This document shows positions 1-7,990 of a stretch of 24,802 bases of DNA, one piece after another. The notes under the pieces are model-generated. The model had not been told where the DNA came from and searched no databases. It saw only the letters and a program-made list of their open reading frames with translations. Numbering within the stretch: the first letter of the stretch is position 1; each line of letters opens with the position of its first letter. The stretch is from a virus. Its lineage: Duplodnaviria > Heunggongvirae > Uroviricota > Caudoviricetes. The stretch lies in IMG/VR virus record IMGVR_UViG_2778261420_000001, positions 1 through 24,802 of that record; one strand, given 5' to 3'. Both the position numbers and the translations under genes were made by a program.

Positions 1-621
1 ATGCGCCAGAATGCGCTGTTGCTTGAGCGAAAACCTGCTGTACCGCCATCGAAACGGGCACATACAGGCAGAGTGGCTGTGAAAGAAAGTAATCAGCGAT
101 GGTGCTCTGACGGGTTCGAGTTCCGCTGTGATAACGGAGAAAAACTGCGAGTCACGTTCGCGCTGGACTGCTGTGACCGTGAGGCACTGCACTGGGCAGT
201 CACTACGGGCGGCTTCGACAGTGAAACAGTACAGGACGTAATGCTGGGAGCGGTGGAACGCCGCTTCGGCAACGAGCTTCCGGCGTCTCCAGTAGAGTGG
301 CTGACGGATAATGGTTCATGCTACCGGGCTAATGAAACACGGCAGTTTGCCCGGATGTTGGGGCTTGAACCGAAGAACACGGCGGTGCGGAGTCCGGAGA
401 GTAACGGAATAGCAGAGAGCTTCGTGAAAACGATAAAGCGTGACTACATCAGTATCATGCCTAAACCAGACGGGTTAACGGCAGCAAAGAACCTTGCAGA
501 GGCGTTCGAGCATTATAACGAATGGCATCCGCATAGTGCACTGGGTTATCGCTCGCCACGGGAATATCTACGGCAGCAAGCCAGTAATGGGTTAAGTGAT
601 AACAGGTGTCTGGAAATATAG
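1..621 (+). CDS. insD: IS3-family transposase OrfB (IS2 InsD-like) C-terminal fragment, 5' partial
   Basis: Track ORF 1-621 translates to an integrase-core (DDE) domain with ...[12 protein letters not shown]...[19 protein letters not shown]...[12 protein letters not shown], characteristic of IS3-family OrfB. The first ATG is internal; the real start lies upstream of the window. Confidence 0.85.
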
Positions 622-632: not shown

Positions 633-838
633 ACCAGTAACACCGCTGTTCCGTTCGTTCCCGTGAAGTAATGACACCCGGCCAGTGCAAACCGCTGGCC
701 GGAGCAGTATCAGGATTTTTTAGTATGCCGTTCTCACAAAAAAACCGCTTGCCATGCCGCAATCAGTCAGGTTACATTTTCGCTGCACCTCATAAAACGG
801 GTGCCGGGTTTCGCAGCCTGCTGACAACCAAAGCGCAC

Positions 839-860
839 AACCGCGCCAGCGGTTTTTTTG
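839..860 (+). terminator. Terminator-like hairpin followed by a T7 run
   Basis: ACCGC-GCCA-GCGGT stem-loop followed by TTTTTTT at ~839-858, inside the non-coding stretch between IS2 and the first phage ORF. The stem is short, so this is weak. Confidence 0.3.
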
Positions 861-1038
861 TGCGTACTGTATTGCCACGTTTTTTTCGCGTCAGAATTAT
901 GGCGGGGCGTACGGGGCCGACTTCGGTCGGGCCGGGTTCTTTGGTTGCCGGTACTGCGAACCCCGTACGTCTCGCCACCCACAGTTTCGCAGCTCTGGAT
1001 GGTGAGTTTTCAAAACTTACAACCAAAGAGGCCACACC

Positions 1039-1269
1039 ATGGCAAACCGCAAACAGCACCGCGCTATCGCGGAGCGTCGTCACATCCAGACTGAAATCAA
1101 CCGCAGACTTTCCCGCGCATTCCGCGTCGCTAAAATCATGCACATCAATATGCTGCATGAGCGTAGCTGCGAACTTTCAAACCTCTACTCATCCGCTGTT
1201 TTCAGTTATCTGGCGGATGATCTGCGCGAGCTTCAGCAGCTCATCCAGCAGCAAAACAAACTCCATTAA
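1039..1269 (+). CDS. Hypothetical small protein (76 aa), phage early region
   Basis: Track ORF with a canonical AAGAGG Shine-Dalgarno about 8 nt upstream of the ATG, co-oriented with the downstream replication gene. No recognisable domain. Confidence 0.5.
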   Translation: MANRKQHRAIAERRHIQTEINRRLSRAFRVAKIMHINMLHERSCELSNLYSSAVFSYLADDLRELQQLIQQQNKLH

Positions 1270-1341
1270 TTCCTGTTCCGGGCCTTTCCTGCACCTTGCG
1301 GCAGGAGGCCTTCGCACATCTGTAACAAGAGGATTGCCGCA

Positions 1342-1707
1342 ATGATTCTCGCCAACGACTTTCTTGAATACCTGCTCAACACAGAGCGTGATCTTGCCGT
1401 TCGCGTGCGTGAACGTTATGACATGTACCTGAAATCCCTGCCTGTACCGCAGCTCGCTGACGGAAAGATTGTTATTGATGGTCGCTACATGATTGACAGC
1501 CACGAGGGAAATTACAGGCTTTACCGCATTGAAGGTGGCACTCCGTCCGTTATTGGCATTTACCAGCGCCCACCCTCTGCAATCGTCGATGTGATTGCCG
1601 ACAGCATCCGCATCACACATCGCTATGCCGACACAGAAGACACCGTGCTGGAAATTCAGCGGCTGGCTGCCGTTTGCCGTGACACCCTGAACGGTATGAC
1701 GCAGTAA
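1342..1707 (+). CDS. Hypothetical protein (121 aa) immediately upstream of the replication gene
   Basis: Track ORF with AAGAGGA Shine-Dalgarno before the ATG, ending 7 nt before the gpA start. Position matches the small early ORFs (orf80-83 region) that precede gene A in P2-like phages. Confidence 0.6.
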   Translation: MILANDFLEYLLNTERDLAVRVRERYDMYLKSLPVPQLADGKIVIDGRYMIDSHEGNYRLYRIEGGTPSVIGIYQRPPSAIVDVIADSIRITHRYADTEDTVLEIQRLAAVCRDTLNGMTQ

Positions 1708-1713
1708 ATCAGT

Positions 1714-4536
1714 ATGACGACAGAGTACATCAGGGACTGGCAACAACCGCGCCACGCAGTGGGGCGTGAAGGAACGGGGATCCCCGCACCTGAATCCGCG
1801 CTTTCCTCCTGGCTGGATGCCTACCAGGCAGAGAACGAGCGCCGACAGGAAAAGGCTGATGCGGCGTTCTCTGCCACGCCACTGGGCAACCTGATTAATA
1901 AAAGCCTGGACGCACAGGAAAAACAGGACAAAACCATCACGCTGGCAGGAGACGCCAGAAGACAGGCACGCGGCGCGGTGGATGAAGCCATGGCCTCGCT
2001 GCGCCTGCTGCCGTCCTATCTGCGCGATCCGCTTATTCGCCACCTCTCCTTCCTGCGCAAAAAACAGGAAGTCGATCGCCGGAAAGGCAAAAAGAGCTGG
2101 CAGGCAGAACGCTATGCACGCGGAACCCTGCGCAAAATATTCGAACGTCTGGATCGCACTGACGGACACTGGCTGACACCGGGTTATCGCTCCCTTGCCG
2201 GACGCGAACGCCTGGACGATTTGCTTTACCTGCCGCAGCTCAACAAACACCAGATACAGACGCTGGCCACCATGACGGCGGCGATGTTCAGCAGCACCTT
2301 CGAAAAACTCTGCGATGGCTTTGGTGCGACTGATGGCGAGCTGACCATGGATGTAACGCTGAAGGCGTATCAGATGCTGGCCCGCATGGCGTTACACCTG
2401 CACGCCATGCCTCCGCATTATGACGCACTGACAACAGACAAAGGCCGGAGGAACGAACCAGACACGGAGCTGCTGCCGGGCGCAATCCTTCGCCTGACCT
2501 GTGCGGAATGGTGGAAACGCAAACTGTGGCTGTTACGTTGCGAGTGGAGAGAAGAACAACTCCGCGCCGCCTGTCTGGTTTCCAGAAAAACATCGCCCTA
2601 TCTGAGCCAGGATGCGTTAAGCGAGTTTCGCGCACAGCGCGAGAAAACACGCGATTTCCTGAAAAGTTTCATGCTGGAAAACGAAGACGGGTTCACGATT
2701 GATCTTGAGACAGTGTATTACGCGGGAGTAAGTAACCCGGTTCACCGTAAGGCAGAAATGATGGCCACCATGAAGGGGCTGGAACTTCTGGCCGAAGCCC
2801 GTGGCGACAGAGCGGTGTTTCTGACTGTCACCTGCCCGTCAAAATACCACGCAACAACGGAGAACGGTCATCCGAATCCCAAATGGAACGGGGCCACTAT
2901 GCGCGACTCCAGCGATTACCTGGTTAACTCGTTTTTTGCGGCGGTCCGCAAGAAACTGAACCGCGACGGCCTGCGCTGGTATGGCATCCGCACGGTGGAG
3001 CCTCACCATGACGGCACCGTGCACTGGCATATGATGGTCTTTGCTCATCCGGAAGAAATCGACACCATTGTGTCCCACACCCGCGATATTGCCATTCAGG
3101 AAGATCGTCACGAGCTGGGTGATGATATTACCCCACGCTTTAAGGCAGAGTACGTCGACGGCTCAAAAGGCACACCGACCAGCTACATCGCCACCTACAT
3201 CGGAAAGAACCTGGACAGCCGCGCCGTGGATGGTATCGACCCGAAAACGGGCAAGCCACGCGTTGACCACGAAACCGGAAAATCAATGGCCGAGAGCGTG
3301 GAGCGCGCCATCGGCTGGGCGCGCCTTCACCGGGTCCGCCAGTTCCAGTTCTTTGGCATCCCCTCCCGTCAGGTGTGGCGTGAACTGCGCCGCCTTGCCA
3401 GCCAGATGGCACGCAACCCGGAAGGCCCGCAACGGCTGAAGGATGACGCAATGGATGCAGTGCTCGCTGCCGCTGATGCCGGGTGTTTTGCCTCCTACAT
3501 AGAGAAACAGGGCGGCGTACTTGTTCCACGCCAAGACTACCTGATTCGCACCGCCTACGACCTCGCAGATGAGCTGAACGATTACGGCGAACAGAGCGTA
3601 CAGATTTACGGGATCTGGTCACCACTCATCGGGGAGTCTTCCCGTGTGTGCACACATCCGGATAACTGGAAGCTGGTAAGACGTAAACCGGAAGCGGAAG
3701 ACAGCGCCCGCGAAAATGGTTTTGACCTTCAGGGCGGCCCTGCCGCCCCTTGGACTCGTGGCAATAACTGTCCCCGTGTACAGGAAACGGACAACAACGG
3801 GACAGAACAGCCGGAAGAACGGCCAGCACCGTGGCCGCAGCTCCCTGACGGCGTTGAAGTGAACGAATGGATGCGCTCACTGAAACGGCACGAACGCCGG
3901 GCGCTGATGCGTTCGCTTCGTGACAAACAGGCAAAAAACAGCAGTGATGAAATGCAGAACTGGACACAGAGCCGCAAACAGTCACAGCCTTTGCCTGATA
4001 ACCACGAATTACTCGCTAAAGAATGGCGGGAATCTGCCGAATCTCTCGGCCTGCATATCGGTGAACAGCAGATGCAGCACCTGTTACGGGGCGGCAGCCT
4101 GTACGTTGACGGCAGCATCATTGCACCACAGGGATTTGAAATTGTACGTAAACCGGATACCCGCCCGGACAGCCGAATCACGCAGCTCTGGCAGCACCTG
4201 AGCCGTAATCACGGCGTAAGCAGCACGGAGATCCGCCATAATCCGGTCGCCAGCTATCTGGCACAACTGGGGGCATCAGACCCCGAAGCCGCCGCACGTC
4301 TGGCATCCACACTTCAGCAGGACCAGAACACCATGAAAACCCCCGTTACCGTGCTTTCTGACATGCTGCGCGCCATCCGTGACGCAGAGCACGCACAGAG
4401 AATCAGTGAAACAACTGAACGCGCCCGCCGCAAAGCAGACCTGCTGCGGGGTGGCCTGACCAGTAGAAACAAAAAACAGACAGAAACGGGATTCACAAAT
4501 CCCGTAAATGAGCAAAAAACGCGCCGCGATATATGA
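1714..4536 (+). CDS. A: Replication initiation protein, phage gpA family (rolling-circle nickase), 940 aa with a long C-terminal extension
   Basis: Track ORF contains hallmark gpA motifs: VFLTVTCPSKYHA, the HWHMMVF histidine pair, and SYIATYIGKNLD carrying the catalytic tyrosine region. It is roughly 180 aa longer than P2 A as I recall it; the extra C-terminus is rich in Q/R/E/K. Confidence 0.9.
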   Translation: MTTEYIRDWQQPRHAVGREGTGIPAPESALSSWLDAYQAENERRQEKADAAFSATPLGNLINKSLDAQEKQDKTITLAGDARRQARGAVDEAMASLRLLPSYLRDPLIRHLSFLRKKQEVDRRKGKKSWQAERYARGTLRKIFERLDRTDGHWLTPGYRSLAGRERLDDLLYLPQLNKHQIQTLATMTAAMFSSTFEKLCDGFGATDGELTMDVTLKAYQMLARMALHLHAMPPHYDALTTDKGRRNEPDTELLPGAILRLTCAEWWKRKLWLLRCEWREEQLRAACLVSRKTSPYLSQDALSEFRAQREKTRDFLKSFMLENEDGFTIDLETVYYAGVSNPVHRKAEMMATMKGLELLAEARGDRAVFLTVTCPSKYHATTENGHPNPKWNGATMRDSSDYLVNSFFAAVRKKLNRDGLRWYGIRTVEPHHDGTVHWHMMVFAHPEEIDTIVSHTRDIAIQEDRHELGDDITPRFKAEYVDGSKGTPTSYIATYIGKNLDSRAVDGIDPKTGKPRVDHETGKSMAESVERAIGWARLHRVRQFQFFGIPSRQVWRELRRLASQMARNPEGPQRLKDDAMDAVLAAADAGCFASYIEKQGGVLVPRQDYLIRTAYDLADELNDYGEQSVQIYGIWSPLIGESSRVCTHPDNWKLVRRKPEAEDSARENGFDLQGGPAAPWTRGNNCPRVQETDNNGTEQPEERPAPWPQLPDGVEVNEWMRSLKRHERRALMRSLRDKQAKNSSDEMQNWTQSRKQSQPLPDNHELLAKEWRESAESLGLHIGEQQMQHLLRGGSLYVDGSIIAPQGFEIVRKPDTRPDSRITQLWQHLSRNHGVSSTEIRHNPVASYLAQLGASDPEAAARLASTLQQDQNTMKTPVTVLSDMLRAIRDAEHAQRISETTERARRKADLLRGGLTSRNKKQTETGFTNPVNEQKTRRDI

Positions 4537-4583
4537 AGCGCGCACAAAACAGGCGAAAACGGGATTTAAAAATCCCGTAAACG
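4469..4583. repeat. Two ~40-bp direct repeats, each containing an 8-4-8 palindrome ACGGGATT-N4-AATCCCGT; candidate operator or centromere (parC-like) site
   Basis: Copy 1 core ACGGGATTCACAAATCCCGT at ~4486-4505 (inside the last codons of gene A) and copy 2 ACGGGATTTAAAAATCCCGT at ~4558-4577, with similar flanks (AAACAG.C..AAACGGG ... CCCGTAAA). Copy 2 lies about 35 bp upstream of the parM-like start codon. Confidence 0.5.
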
Positions 4584-4612
4584 ATTAATTAATCAACATA
4601 AGGAAAAGCGAC

Positions 4613-5572
4613 ATGAAAATTTGTATCGACGACGGCTCCACCAACATCAAGCTGGCATGGACTGAGAACGGCGAACGCCGCAACGCCATCAGCCCGAACA
4701 GCTTCAAGTCGGAATGGTCTGCGCCGTTCGGTGGCACGCAGCCCGCGAACTACATGCTTGATGGCGTGCGCTATGGTTTTGATCCGGTCAGCGATCGCTT
4801 TGTCCAGACGACCGACACGCAATACCAGTACAGCGATGTGAATGTAATCGCCATTCACCACGCGCTGGTCAAATCAGGCATCACACCACAGGAAGTGGAT
4901 GTGGTTGTTACCCTGCCACTGAGCGAGTATTTCGACACAAACGCACAGCCGGACATGGCCAACATCAACCGCAAAAAAGCGAACGTTATGCGCCCGGTGG
5001 AGTACCAGAACGGCGAGGCATTCACTATCCGTAACGTGCGGGTTATGCCTGAATCCATTCCGGCTGGTTTTAAGGCACTGGCTGACATGAGTCCGTTTGA
5101 ATCCCTGCTGATTGTGGATTTGGGCGGAACCACGCTGGATGTGGCAAAGGTTCAGGGGCAACTGGCAGGTATCAGCCAGGTGTTTTGCGATCCACACGTA
5201 GGCGTTTCTCTGATGGCCGATGCCGTGCTGTCGGTGATGGCCACCAACGGTATGCGCACCAGTCACCACATCGCCAATACCATTATCGAACATCGCCACG
5301 ATGAAGCCTGGCTGCGCCAGCACATCCACAATGACGCGCATTACGCCAGCCTGATGGCAGTTATTCGTGAAAAGGAGGAAACACTGAAACAACGCGTGAT
5401 CCGCGCGCTGGCGGTTTTTTCGGGTTACGGGCGGGTGATGGTTGTAGGTGGAGGAGCGGAGATTGTGGCACCCGCTATCCGCGAAGCCTGCGGAGTTAAT
5501 GCGACTTTCATCGCGGACGGGGTGCCACAGTTTGCTCTGGTTAATGGGCTGTACGCAATGGACAAGGAGTAA
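4613..5572 (+). CDS. parM: ParM/StbA-family actin-like segregation ATPase (319 aa)
   Basis: Track ORF aligns along its whole length, from memory, with plasmid R1 ParM: N-terminal IDDGSTNIKL phosphate motif, YSDVNV..HHAL, VMPESIPAG, L.IDLGGTTLD, VMV.GGGAE and C-terminal LVNG.Y. Shine-Dalgarno AAGGAAAAG upstream. Confidence 0.9.
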   Translation: MKICIDDGSTNIKLAWTENGERRNAISPNSFKSEWSAPFGGTQPANYMLDGVRYGFDPVSDRFVQTTDTQYQYSDVNVIAIHHALVKSGITPQEVDVVVTLPLSEYFDTNAQPDMANINRKKANVMRPVEYQNGEAFTIRNVRVMPESIPAGFKALADMSPFESLLIVDLGGTTLDVAKVQGQLAGISQVFCDPHVGVSLMADAVLSVMATNGMRTSHHIANTIIEHRHDEAWLRQHIHNDAHYASLMAVIREKEETLKQRVIRALAVFSGYGRVMVVGGGAEIVAPAIREACGVNATFIADGVPQFALVNGLYAMDKE

Positions 5573-5576
5573 ATCA

Positions 5577-5891
5577 ATGACGACACCAACCAGACGGATA
5601 AGTTTCTATCTGAAGCCCGCCGTCGTCAAGAGCGAACGGGAGGCGTGCAGTTACCTCGACAGCCTGCCAGCCTCCGAACGCAGCCGCGCACAACGCGCGG
5701 CTTTTCTGGCTGGACTGGCTCTTATAAAACGCACCCCCGCGTTGGCGTATTCGCTGGCAGAATGGTCAGAAGACGAAATACGGATGCCACCGCTACCAGT
5801 ACAGCCTGAAAAACCGGCGCAACCAGCAGCAGACAGCGCCCCCCATATGCAGCAGGTGAAAAAGAATATTCAGGCGTTTTTCCCGAAGTGA
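5577..5891 (+). CDS. parR: ParR-like ribbon-helix-helix centromere-binding protein / operon repressor (104 aa)
   Basis: ATG at 5577 with AAGGAG Shine-Dalgarno embedded in the end of parM, 4 nt after the parM stop. N-terminal segment ISFYLKP...SYLDSLPASERSRAQRAAFLAGLAL resembles R1 ParR (…TLDSIPQGERSRLNRAALTAGLAL). The track ORF 5448-5891 extends upstream into parM and is taken to be an artefact. Confidence 0.8.
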   Translation: MTTPTRRISFYLKPAVVKSEREACSYLDSLPASERSRAQRAAFLAGLALIKRTPALAYSLAEWSEDEIRMPPLPVQPEKPAQPAADSAPHMQQVKKNIQAFFPK

Positions 5892-5905
5892 AAACAGGAG
5901 TAACT

Positions 5906-6193
5906 ATGTCCACCATTACCAAAGAATGGTTACAACGTAAAATCACAGAGTTTAAATCGTGGCGCGAAGACATCCCGTTCGGTCTTGATGAAGACGATCA
6001 CAATATGTTAATCGCACTGGAAATCGCACTTGCATCACTGGAAGCAGAGCCAGTGGCATGGATGCACGCAAATAATCCTATTGGAATACCGGCGATAACA
6101 AGAAGTAAAGATGTTGCAGACAGCTGGCGCTCTAAGGGATGGAATGTATTGCCTCTTTATTCACTGACCCGCCCCATCAATTTATGCCATTAA
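5906..6193 (+). CDS. Hypothetical protein (95 aa), cargo gene of unknown function
   Basis: In-frame ATG at ~5906 preceded by CAGGAG Shine-Dalgarno, starting about 15 nt after the parR stop. It sits at the point where the sequence becomes visibly AT-richer. No recognised domain. Confidence 0.55.
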   Translation: MSTITKEWLQRKITEFKSWREDIPFGLDEDDHNMLIALEIALASLEAEPVAWMHANNPIGIPAITRSKDVADSWRSKGWNVLPLYSLTRPINLCH

Positions 6194-6204
6194 TGGAAGT
6201 AATC

Positions 6205-6564
6205 ATGATGAAAGATAATTCCGGAAGCCAGCGTGCATCAGTTGCAGTTATGGTAATGATTAAATTTGTGAAACAGTACACCGGAAAGCCAATCTCACTC
6301 CGGCAATTAAGCAAAGAAACCGTTTCACTGTCATATCTGGAGCAAATATTCAGATATTTACGGGAAAGTAGCTTGGTAAAAGCCACACGCGGCCCGGGTG
6401 GTGGATATATCCCGACAAAAGAAAATTACAGTGTTGGTGATATTGTCCGGGCAATGAAATGTTCCGGATTATATACACAGCACGTTATTCTGGCTGCACT
6501 GGATAATATTTCTTTAACCAGCCTGCAGGAAGACACAAATTATCAGTTGTCTGCCATTGAATAA
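6205..6564 (+). CDS. Rrf2-family-like winged-helix transcriptional regulator (about 119 aa; start uncertain, 6184-6208)
   Basis: Contains the Rrf2 wHTH signature ISLRQLSKETVSLSYLEQIFRYLRESSLVKATRGPGGGY. No Cys cluster, so probably not Fe-S binding. AT-rich relative to its flanks and directly abuts the preceding ORF. Confidence 0.6.
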   Translation: MMKDNSGSQRASVAVMVMIKFVKQYTGKPISLRQLSKETVSLSYLEQIFRYLRESSLVKATRGPGGGYIPTKENYSVGDIVRAMKCSGLYTQHVILAALDNISLTSLQEDTNYQLSAIE

Positions 6565-6569
6565 GAAAA

Positions 6570-6610
6570 CCCGGAACGGGTGCGCAAATTCTTTGTGCGC
6601 CCGTTCCGGG
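6570..6610. terminator. Long GC-rich hairpin between convergent genes (bidirectional intrinsic terminator candidate)
   Basis: CCCGGAACGGGTGCGCAAA - TTC - TTTGTGCGCCCGTTCCGGG: a near-perfect ~19-bp inverted repeat starting 6 nt after the Rrf2-like stop and ending about 20 nt before the convergent Ogr-like gene's stop. Confidence 0.6.
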
Positions 6611-6632
6611 TTGGACAAGCGAAGCGCGTCAG

Positions 6633-6890
6633 CTATCCGGCCTGCAACAACTCCAGAGCCATTTGTTTTTCTTCCGGACGCATCCGCTCAATCAACAGCT
6701 TTAACACACCATTCTCCAGCCCGCTGGGCACCAGTGTGTGCGAGTAGGTCAGATTCATCACCCAGGTATGTCCGCACTCGAGACGGGTGCAACGGTAATA
6801 CACATCAGCAAACTGATCGGTTTTCCAGGCTGTTTTCTCAATCACTGCATGTGCACCGCAGCAATGACATCGCGCTTTCTGTCTGCGCAT
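6633..6890 (-). CDS. Ogr/Delta-family zinc-finger late-gene transcriptional activator (about 85 aa)
   Basis: Start moved to the internal ATG (MRRQKARCHCCG...) which has a GGAGGTGGAAA Shine-Dalgarno. Cys spacing C-x2-C-x22-C-x4-C matches P2 Ogr / P4 Delta exactly, and there is a ...VPSG... segment like Ogr. Confidence 0.7.
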   Translation of the reverse strand: MRRQKARCHCCGAHAVIEKTAWKTDQFADVYYRCTRLECGHTWVMNLTYSHTLVPSGLENGVLKLLIERMRPEEKQMALELLQAG

Positions 6891-6955
6891 TTTCCACCTC
6901 CCGGAACAGCGTTTTACTGCCACCGATTTTACCCGCTCTTTCCCCATACCGCACA

Positions 6956-7990
6956 TCACTCCATGGGTTCATCAAAATCAAGAATAAATTTCACCTCCCC
7001 CAGTCGTCTGATATCCGGGTCGCTGTTGATCCCCTCCATAATCAGGCGGCGCATCGGGATAACCTCATCCCTGTAATATGCCTCGCGGGATTTCAGTGGG
7101 TCACCAAGCCCGGCCGTATTTGCGGGAATGATGCCGGCAAGTCCGGGTGGGAAACGGTGCGCGACGAGCTGATCCTGGGCACTGATGGTTTTTATATTCA
7201 GGAACTCATCTTTTGTACCTGAATCCCCGATAGGGATCACCTTAACGCCTTCTTTGTCTCCGCCCGGTATATTGATAAACATGGATTTAAAATTGCCCGC
7301 CCCTTTTGACGCCTCTATCTTTTTACGGAATTCCGCCTCGAGCTCGGGATCCATGTCCGGGTCAGTGGAATACAGGATATAACCAAGATGTGCGCCGTTC
7401 TTGTAATACTTGCGGCGAAAGCGGGTGGCATCCACATTCAGCATGGCGGATTCCATCCCGTGAATATAATCCGGTACACCGTAAACCTGCTGTTGCGGGT
7501 CATAAATGGCCACGAACACCACTTCGCCTGGCGGGTAAACGAGATCTTCCAGTGCCGCCTGCACAATCACCGTGCCACCCTCGTTGTTACGCCGCAGGTA
7601 CAGCGACGGCAGTGTGTGCAGGCGCACTACCAGACCGAAGCCATTGCGCACTTTAAGCAGACCCATATCCCCGAATATCAGCAGATTGGTCACCGCTGCC
7701 GCCATGGCGGCGTGTGTCATACCACCGCCCCCCCTAAAACCCTGCATGATCATATTGACGCGCGCACGCAATACCGCGCCGTGATACGGTGCGATATTGG
7801 CCAACATAGCGAGATCCATGCGCTCAATGGGCGGCGTGTACCAGCCGTTATAGCCATCCCAGAGCGAGCCGTAATAACAGCCCCATGCAGCGACTGGTTC
7901 CGGGTCACCAAATTCAATAAACGTCATTTTGCTGGCTGTTTTTTTTGCCACGCCATCGTGTAGCACGGGGGATTTTTTCTTTTTACTCAT
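6956..7990 (-). CDS. Q: Portal protein, P2 gpQ-like (344 aa)
   Basis: Same length as P2 Q and positioned immediately downstream of, and overlapping by 8 nt, the terminase ATPase gene on the same strand, as in P2. Confidence 0.85.
   Translation of the reverse strand: MSKKKKSPVLHDGVAKKTASKMTFIEFGDPEPVAAWGCYYGSLWDGYNGWYTPPIERMDLAMLANIAPYHGAVLRARVNMIMQGFRGGGGMTHAAMAAAVTNLLIFGDMGLLKVRNGFGLVVRLHTLPSLYLRRNNEGGTVIVQAALEDLVYPPGEVVFVAIYDPQQQVYGVPDYIHGMESAMLNVDATRFRRKYYKNGAHLGYILYSTDPDMDPELEAEFRKKIEASKGAGNFKSMFINIPGGDKEGVKVIPIGDSGTKDEFLNIKTISAQDQLVAHRFPPGLAGIIPANTAGLGDPLKSREAYYRDEVIPMRRLIMEGINSDPDIRRLGEVKFILDFDEPME

Follow-up and report, generated by a model that had tools for sequence, protein, structure and literature searches.

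Paired palindromic dyads upstream of parM as a candidate ParR-binding centromere in P88-like prophages

Organization of the gpA-parM-parR locus

Type II partition, a textbook mode of DNA segregation, has been described almost exclusively in plasmids that carry direct iterons in arrays. The DNA analyzed here, a stretch of 24,802 nucleotides (IMG/VR record IMGVR_UViG_2778261420_000001, hereafter the window), is a P88-like (Xuanwuvirus, P2-like) prophage in which open reading frame (ORF) listing and Pfam scans gave the gene order gpA, parM, parR, variable cargo and portal. Two 20-bp dyads, one inside the last codons of gpA and one just before parM, are likely to be the centromere (parC) of a type II ParMRC module of this P2-family prophage, as judged from sequence comparison. 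We favor ParR as the protein that would bind them because the same offsets from parM and the same spacing were found in three diverged lineages sharing a TRR[I/V]SFY ParR strand, because other repeats stand there where ParR differs, and because the two dyads are the sole copies in the phage genome. The gpA gene, which encodes a P2-type replication endonuclease, is context for the par module and not a component of it.

The two par genes are those expected of a type II (ParMRC) system, an actin-like ATPase gene followed directly by that of a small adaptor. Pfam matches span the full length of ParM, which also matches phrog_691 ("partition protein", 1.7e-90) and is 47-52% identical to plasmid ParM proteins. 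Among P88-like loci, nucleotide diversity (pi) in parM is 0.007 at codon positions 1 and 2 versus 0.069 at 4-fold sites, indicating that ParM is under strong purifying selection. The parR gene starts 5 nt past the parM stop, and its product consists of an N-terminal predicted DNA-binding strand, MTTPTRRISFYLKP, a variable linker and a C-terminal NIxxxFP tail. The ribbon-helix-helix (RHH) fold of ParR is putative, the sole solved structure matched being that of pB171 ParR (2JD3; a weak match, E 0.009), while an AlphaFold monomer model of low confidence (pLDDT 60) places the expected helices after an unstructured N-terminal strand. Residues N97, I98, F102 and P103 are invariant across 26 diverse ParR sequences in which the linker is hypervariable, and R1-type ParR has the same motif as NILRSLFP; this conservation points to a C-terminal ParR peptide that may engage ParM, as in type II systems.

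ParR is diverse even among near-identical P88-like prophages (L014-L093), with 46 alleles of two N-domain types in 85 loci. The hypervariable part is the linker, at about residues 64-95; the MTTPTRRISFYLKP strand and the NIxxxFP tail are invariant and ParM is ~99% identical. This diversity may reflect diversifying selection or frequent recombination.

Table 1 Features of the window around the candidate centromere and in the neighboring prophage regions
Feature	Positions	Strand	Description
IS-type integrase-core fragment (rve, rve_3 domains)	1-621		Window begins inside the transposase ORF
Ash-family ORF	671-1345		
gpA	1714-4536	+	P2-type replication endonuclease, 940 aa; PF05840, 2.1e-130; 3′ end overlaps dyad 1
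Extended direct-repeat unit 1	4470-4511	+	42 nt; holds dyad 1
Dyad 1 (distal)	4486-4505		Candidate ParR site of two inverted half-sites, ACGGGATT-CACA-AATCCCGT; within the last 16 gpA codons
Inter-dyad spacer	4506-4558		53 bp; contains the gpA stop; no recognizable promoter; more variable part in the population
Extended direct-repeat unit 2	4543-4584	+	42 nt; holds dyad 2; 83% identical to unit 1
Dyad 2 (proximal)	4559-4578		Candidate ParR site, ACGGGATT-TAAA-AATCCCGT; after the gpA stop
TTAATTAATCAACATAAGGAAAA block	4585-4607	+	Most conserved non-coding stretch; near-invariant in 63 haplotypes
parM	4613-5572	+	Actin-like ATPase, 319 aa; PF06406 (StbA_N), 1.8e-82; PF21523 (ParM C-terminal), 6.3e-69
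parR (StbB family)	5577-5891	+	104 aa; PF10784 (Plasmid_stab_B), 4.4e-24
Three small ORFs after parR			Include an Rrf2-like regulator (Pfam scans)
Portal gene	6956-7990	-	Followed by the large terminase and late genes

Anatomy and copy number of the dyads

The window was searched with the pattern ACGGGATTNNNNAATCCCGT, allowing up to 3 mismatches, and 100 dinucleotide shuffles served as background. Both matches, ACGGGATTCACAAATCCCGT at dyad 1 and ACGGGATTTAAAAATCCCGT at dyad 2, had 0 mismatches, and two or more matches were present in 0/100 shuffles (mean 0.13), confirming the two palindrome copies that an initial annotation of this DNA had pointed out. The form ACGGGATT-N4-AATCCCGT occurs exactly twice in the window, and the complete P88 genome contains the same two dyad copies and no others. 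A proposed search for further copies thus ended with one pair each in the window and in P88, which is not the distribution of a generic or REP-like dispersed repeat. A scan of IMG/VR for CGGGATT-N6-AATCCCG gave isolated single matches in unrelated contigs which, with 14 specified bases, are not interpretable.

An additional GGG-N10-CCC, TCGGGATAACCTCATCCCTG, sharing CGGGAT and ATCCC with the dyads, was seen on the minus strand in the portal gene of the window (7054-7073), and the portal gene of the Plesiomonas phage L009 has TCGGGATAAC... at 6729, at a codon position that is non-homologous to that of TCGGGATAACCTCATCCCTG. Since GGG-N10-CCC is expected by chance about once per 2.7 kb, these portal-gene matches are probably coincidence.

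Each dyad lies within a longer direct-repeat unit, the two units starting 73 bp apart, so that the similar flanks noted earlier are real and the spacing first put at ~72 bp is close to, and 1 bp short of, the measured value. The placement of the first copy in the last gpA codons and of the second about 35 bp before parM was likewise accurate, dyad 2 ending 34 nt before the parM ATG (4613). The peptide that both copies had been said to encode in the gpA frame is present for copy 1 (TGFTNPVN), while copy 2 gives TGFKNPVND* in its own frame only: it is out of the gpA frame, 73 not being a multiple of 3, and lies past the gpA stop codon (TGA, 4534-4536). In the window the shared peptide is therefore hypothetical. 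Read-through of this kind is realized in one natural variant, L028 (IMGVR_UViG_2657245439_000011, 3900-4000), in which an exact 73-bp deletion between the repeat units has left a single dyad; there gpA reads through the remaining dyad and stops 25 nt before parM.

Between dyad 2 and parM, the TTAATTAATCAACATAAGGAAAA block contains ATTAATCAA (4588-4596) and the Shine-Dalgarno sequence AAGGA (4600-4604), both of which are common to the Hafnia and Plesiomonas loci described below; it is possible that the block is a -10 or leader element of parM.

AAA tracts across window positions 4465-4590 have a 10.6-bp periodicity that was reached in 0/2000 shuffles, which suggests intrinsic curvature. The periodicity was not found in the homologous regions of L009 (Plesiomonas) or L006 (Hafnia), and, since the 73-bp repeat itself probably gives rise to it, A-tract phasing was dropped as evidence.

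Conservation of the dyads across P2-like phage lineages

Searches of phage and plasmid collections for relatives of the gpA-parM junction returned near-identical copies only, and a scan of species-representative genomes with ParM returned only three near-identical loci; diversity was obtained through a ParM protein search, contig look-ups and a metagenome scan (plasmid-type loci without gpA). The contig look-ups placed parM-parR between gpA and portal in further P2-like phages, for a total of at least five P2-like lineages. ParM is 62% identical to that of the window in phages of Hafnia (L006-8) and Plesiomonas (L009), 58% identical in those of Serratia (L011, L094) and 54% identical in an Enterobacter-type group (L012, L013, L095, L096, L180).

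The N-terminal strand of ParR reads TRRISFYLKP in the window, TRRISFYLNP in Plesiomonas and TRRVSFYLKP in Hafnia, and all three lineages have a pair of GGG-N10-CCC dyads, at -125/-52 from the parM ATG in the window, -131/-59 in L009 and -128/-55 in L006, with a dyad-to-dyad spacing of 73, 72 and 73 bp, respectively. Repeats immediately upstream of parM, which are typical of type II systems, are thus present with position and spacing kept, and they differ from those of characterized type II members in being internal dyads as opposed to direct iterons. When four sequences were aligned, the columns without change were concentrated in the dyad cores, ATTAATCAA and the Shine-Dalgarno/ATG region, and the remainder has diverged. 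Dyad copy 1 is also within the final gpA codons in Plesiomonas, while in Hafnia a 167-aa ORF separates gpA from parM and covers both dyads in another frame. Because the upstream gene, its frame and the flanks change and the dyads stay, the dyads follow parMR, and not gpA or a reading frame. The two-copy layout is older than the divergence of the E. coli, Plesiomonas and Hafnia phages, and the earlier suggestion that a duplication helped create the gpA C-terminal tail does not hold for any recent event; whichever gene lies upstream simply extends into the site, and the frame in which it does so varies.

GGG-N10-CCC was not found upstream of parM in the Serratia and Enterobacter phages, whose ParR strand is NRKISFYLKP. 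Its replacement there is a 14-21-nt inverted repeat with arms 24-28 bp apart, GAAATAGAAAAAT...ATTTTTCT[A/G]TTTC. The proposal that the repeats are a ParR-binding centromere is upheld as a candidate by this comparison, in which the dyad pair is kept in the three lineages that share a ParR strand and replaced where ParR differs.

The replacement region is a different candidate parC in its own right, with the arrangement GGGAAC-N5-AGAAAAAT ... ATTTTTCT-N5-GTTCCC in L011 (3887-3978), L012 (3883-3969), L095, L096 and L180. The long inverted repeat of the Serratia and Enterobacter phages is followed by a GCCGTTTAAACGGC-type palindrome, and L011 also has two ATTTCATGACC direct repeats. A simpler rule, that the ParR beta-strand alone predicts the iteron, was rejected, as L179 and L107 share the strand NRKCSFYIYP yet have different iterons.

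The dyads could instead bind a protein other than ParR (gpA, some other regulator of the phage or a factor of the host, for example) and merely adjoin parM. Copy 1 does lie within gpA, the site is at the 3′ end of the early operon, and the link between ParR and this DNA is a comparative one. However, the dyads go with the TRR[I/V]SFY type of ParR and not with the type of gpA: Hafnia phages keep them despite a gpA that is only 34% identical to that of the window and an intervening ORF, whereas Serratia phages, with a gpA that is 57% identical and a different ParR, are without them. The cargo that follows parR, which includes the Rrf2-like regulator here, also varies, leaving parM and parR as the sole constant partners of the dyads. 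We therefore regard binding by some other protein as improbable.

Variation among P88-like prophages

Diversity within P88-like prophages was measured in 79 loci with 65 distinct sequences. The value of pi was 0.023 in the dyad cores (CGGGA/TCCCG), 0.051 in the whole arms and 0.17 in the loops, compared with the 0.069 of parM 4-fold sites. This pattern, which comes from few sites, is consistent with constrained cores and an unconstrained dyad centre. The ParR beta-strand is invariant in 85 P88-like loci, in which variants have been shuffled by recombination. The same change was found in both dyads in two loci, L056 having ACAGGATT twice and L085 having both dyads altered at the same T; matched changes of this kind suggest gene conversion or a shared constraint.

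The pair might also be a generic repeat, a non-functional leftover of a local tandem duplication. The 42-nt units are similar enough for this, and they are able to recombine, as the 73-bp deletion in L028 illustrates. Such a remnant would not be expected to retain two copies at a fixed spacing while its flanks diverged beyond recognition, to be confined to two copies per phage genome, or to have cores that are less diverse than the loops and neutral sites, and we consider this explanation very hard to credit.

Hairpin, terminator and promoter analyses

In the E. coli lineage the dyads can form 8-bp hairpins of ~-11 kcal/mol on either strand (z -2.9 to -3.9). The Plesiomonas and Hafnia sites retain little beyond GGG...CCC and do not outdo shuffled sequence in folding, z being between -1.0 and +0.3 at three of the four and -2.2 at copy 1 of L009. 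Since hairpin stability is not conserved, the conserved property is a spaced double-stranded DNA motif and not an RNA element. A rho-independent terminator does not fit either, as no T-run follows either hairpin on the plus strand and hairpin stability is lost in L009 and L006. An Rfam search gave a sub-threshold chance match only and no family.

The hairpins of the E. coli lineage and the T-rich tail that follows each copy on the minus strand, where a terminator scan flagged copy 1 alone as terminator-like, are what one would expect if the palindromes acted as RNA, either as stem-loops that stabilize or process the gpA-parM transcript or as terminators of leftward antisense transcription from the cargo into gpA. 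Besides the loss of stability and the lack of a plus-strand T-run and of an Rfam family, the Plesiomonas and Hafnia phages have no A-tracts upstream of these sites, and frequent variants in P88-like loci, such as 4492 T>C, break pairs without compensation. The chance that the dyads work as RNA is thus slim.

The interval between the upstream gene and parM was also scanned for signals of transcription in the window, L009 and L006, and no plus-strand terminator was found in any of the three. A sigma-70-like promoter was not found in these intervals either. The same scan detects a promoter between the iteron blocks of the plasmid relatives L099 and L107, but it is blank on the R1-type parC promoter region as well, so that the missing promoter is weak evidence and a weak promoter is possible. 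A candidate can be read from the sequence, TTTAAA (4565-4570)-17-ATTAAT (4588-4593), with a -35 element that overlaps dyad 2. Transcription of the early operon probably continues through gpA into parM, perhaps with some contribution from a weak promoter that overlaps dyad 2; were that promoter to exist, ParR would also act as an autorepressor.

Autorepression leads to a further explanation, in which ParR uses the dyads only as an operator and the module no longer segregates DNA in this phage, or never did. The overlap of dyad 2 with the -35 of the candidate promoter would suit an operator, and so would the four half-sites, compared with ten iterons in R1, and an element that is almost always chromosomal. 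What argues against it is that thousands of genomes have an intact ParM under strong purifying selection, that the putative ParM-binding tail of ParR is invariant when its linker is free to vary, that parMR is kept in this position in at least five P2-like lineages, and that the site has no convincing conserved promoter. An operator and nothing more is, in our judgment, an unlikely function for the pair.

Phage context and neighboring genes

The gpA-parM junction is 96-97.5% identical to that of Escherichia phage P88 and other Xuanwuvirus records. P88 encodes an integrase, C and Cox, and is thus an integrating phage; it is known as an integrated, inducible prophage (PMC7969092; PMC5285337) and has been flagged as a possible phage-plasmid from its partition genes, on gene content alone (PMC7969092). 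A parC site in P88 is not mentioned in either of these papers. The 200-bp region around the junction is present in 1303 of 5426 complete E. coli genomes (24%), and 1440 of its 1442 places in these genomes are chromosomal. NZ_CP148288.1 (L178), a circular sequence of 34,461 bp listed as a plasmid from an E. coli isolate, comprises an entire P88-like phage genome; the circle may be an episome, or it may come from phage DNA induced during culture.

The cargo segment between parR and portal (window 5888-7222) contains a 101-aa ORF, the Rrf2-like regulator (6139-6564) and a 221-aa ORF without a family match. At the same place, L010, L011, L012 and L177 have DUF3800, HicAB, a KAP NTPase, or an HTH protein with an M78 peptidase. 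The segment looks like a P2 cargo or defense hotspot with parMR as its fixed left edge. A defense-system reading of parMR itself was rejected, PADLOC giving zero matches on parM, parR and the three downstream ORFs.

At the other end, the transposase ORF at 1-621, upstream of the Ash-family gene, marks an insertion sequence in or beside the prophage early region. Within the Ash-family ORF, ACAAAAAAACCGC is present as an inverted pair (736-748, plus strand, and 849-861, minus strand), and L009 and L006 have an 11-13-mer of ACAAAAAAACCGC in their early regions as well; the motif came to light only as the highest-ranking match of the A-rich R1-iteron matrix described below.

Weighing the centromere interpretation

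Several observations weigh against a ParR-binding centromere. The half-sites are inverted and only four in number, and the characterized ParR proteins bind direct repeats (PMC9426499). A matrix made from the ten iterons of an R1-type parC (L303) and scanned over the window, L009, L006 and L011 ranked the best dyad arm 89th in the window. Whole-arm diversity is barely under the neutral value, and single arm variants are common among haplotypes (4492 T/C in 35%, 4559 A/G in 40% and 4576 C/T in 21%). No covariation of dyad variants with the two ParR N-domain alleles was visible in the 85 P88-like loci, and L028 exists in nature with one dyad lost. To these can be added the lack of a recognizable promoter in the window, L009 and L006, with the limit of the scan given above, and the almost exclusively chromosomal location of the region, which leaves no obvious partition substrate in a lysogen. 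Set against them are the travel of the dyads with parMR, their fixed offsets and spacing, and their replacement where ParR differs, and the centromere remains the explanation that we consider likely.

Binding of ParR to the dyads, its stoichiometry, looping of the DNA and a biological role are what we infer from this evidence. Each dyad would consist of two inverted half-sites with the core (A)A(T/A)CCC(G/A), GGG and CCC being centered 13 bp apart, and would bind a pair of RHH ParR dimers. The 73-bp spacing is ~7 helical turns, so that both dyads would be on the same face of the DNA, and four ParR dimers could bridge the spacer or wrap it into a small segrosome. The clustered NIxxxFP tails of ParR would then capture growing ParM filament ends, and circular phage genomes would be pushed apart or positioned. 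The role could be to maintain a non-integrated or excised circle, or to position replicating DNA, as in the AlpACS system of prophage CGP3.

A broader proposal, which we offer tentatively and hold to be rather doubtful, is that a whole clade of integrating P2-like phages (in E. coli, Plesiomonas, Hafnia, Serratia and Enterobacter) has, as a conserved core module co-transcribed with the replication gene, a ParMRC system whose centromere is a minimal one of inverted repeats, and that these phages actively position or partition their circular genomes. Active partition in such a clade could act in the lytic cycle, while DNA replicates by the rolling-circle mode and is packaged from circles, or the phages could alternate between integration and an episomal carrier state that has so far escaped notice. 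Avoidance of cross-talk among co-resident prophages would then explain how rapidly the ParR linker, and the sites from one lineage to another, have diversified.

The question matters since about a quarter of complete E. coli genomes carry a prophage with this machinery, and since the candidate centromere overlaps the end of a replication gene. If ParR binds the dyads, ParR can use inverted half-sites and very few sites, a ~95-bp fragment becomes available for asking the minimum number of ParR dimers that engage ParM, and an episomal or actively positioned state of "integrating" P2-like phages such as P88 becomes directly testable. Otherwise, the conserved pair would represent a regulatory site in need of another explanation, at the edge of the P2 cargo hotspot.

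Comparison with known partition systems

What appears to be new is the use of two inverted-repeat dyads in place of direct iterons, and this in an integrating phage. ParR proteins act as RHH adaptors whose target repeats lie immediately before parM; these are 11-bp iterons in R1, a pair of 10-bp repeats in pB171 and units of 20 bp in pSK41 (PMC9426499; PMC5016525). The locus resembles the parMRC (parA/stb) systems of R1/NR1 in the order repeats-parM-parR, in ParM (~47% identical), in the ParR N-domain (~43% identical over 63 aa), in the shared NIxxxFP motif and in a similar Shine-Dalgarno context, ATAAGGA. It differs in that R1-type parC has 5+5 direct 11-bp iterons around a promoter (PMC5016525), whereas the window has two dyads and no recognizable promoter, in that dyad 1 is inside the upstream gene, and in that the replicon is an integrating phage and not a plasmid. 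The R1 iteron core AAACCC loosely resembles the phage half-site AA(T/A)CCC(G/A), a hint only that the matrix does not support; as the matrix fails to single out the arms and the likeness to AAACCCA is only suggestive, we do not claim the half-sites as R1-type iterons.

In plasmid relatives of the locus, this position is occupied by a classic parC in which direct iterons of 11 bp flank a promoter. In L099, GTTCTCAAAT-type iterons are spaced by 11, 11, 49 and 11 bp, with TTGATT-16-TACAAT in the gap, and in L107, TTATTTTTCT iterons surround TTTACT-17-GATAAT.

For a small number of sites and for a 20-bp unit there are precedents in pB171 par1 and in pSK41, respectively, and ParR of pSK41 binds its 20-bp units as a dimer of dimers (PMC9426499; PMC5016525). 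The repeats of these plasmids are direct and contiguous, whereas the units in the window are internally palindromic and have 53 bp between them. RHH repressors such as Arc and Mnt of P22 can bind ~20-bp dyad operators as a dimer of dimers, and the omega protein of pSM19035 binds direct and inverted heptads equivalently, so that inverted half-sites are compatible with an RHH protein (in part PMC5016525). Arc and Mnt are repressors and omega is a type Ib centromere-binding protein, and none of them works with ParM.

In AlpACS of the Corynebacterium glutamicum prophage CGP3, an actin-like protein is combined with an adaptor that binds repeats upstream of its own operon, and the system is required for efficient phage DNA replication after induction (PMC4446434). 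It differs from the module described here in the gene order alpA-alpC and in the host phylum, and its alpS repeats are not described as paired dyads. AlpACS, an actin-like module of an integrated prophage, nevertheless offers the best parallel in function to a ParMRC-like module carried by an integrating phage.

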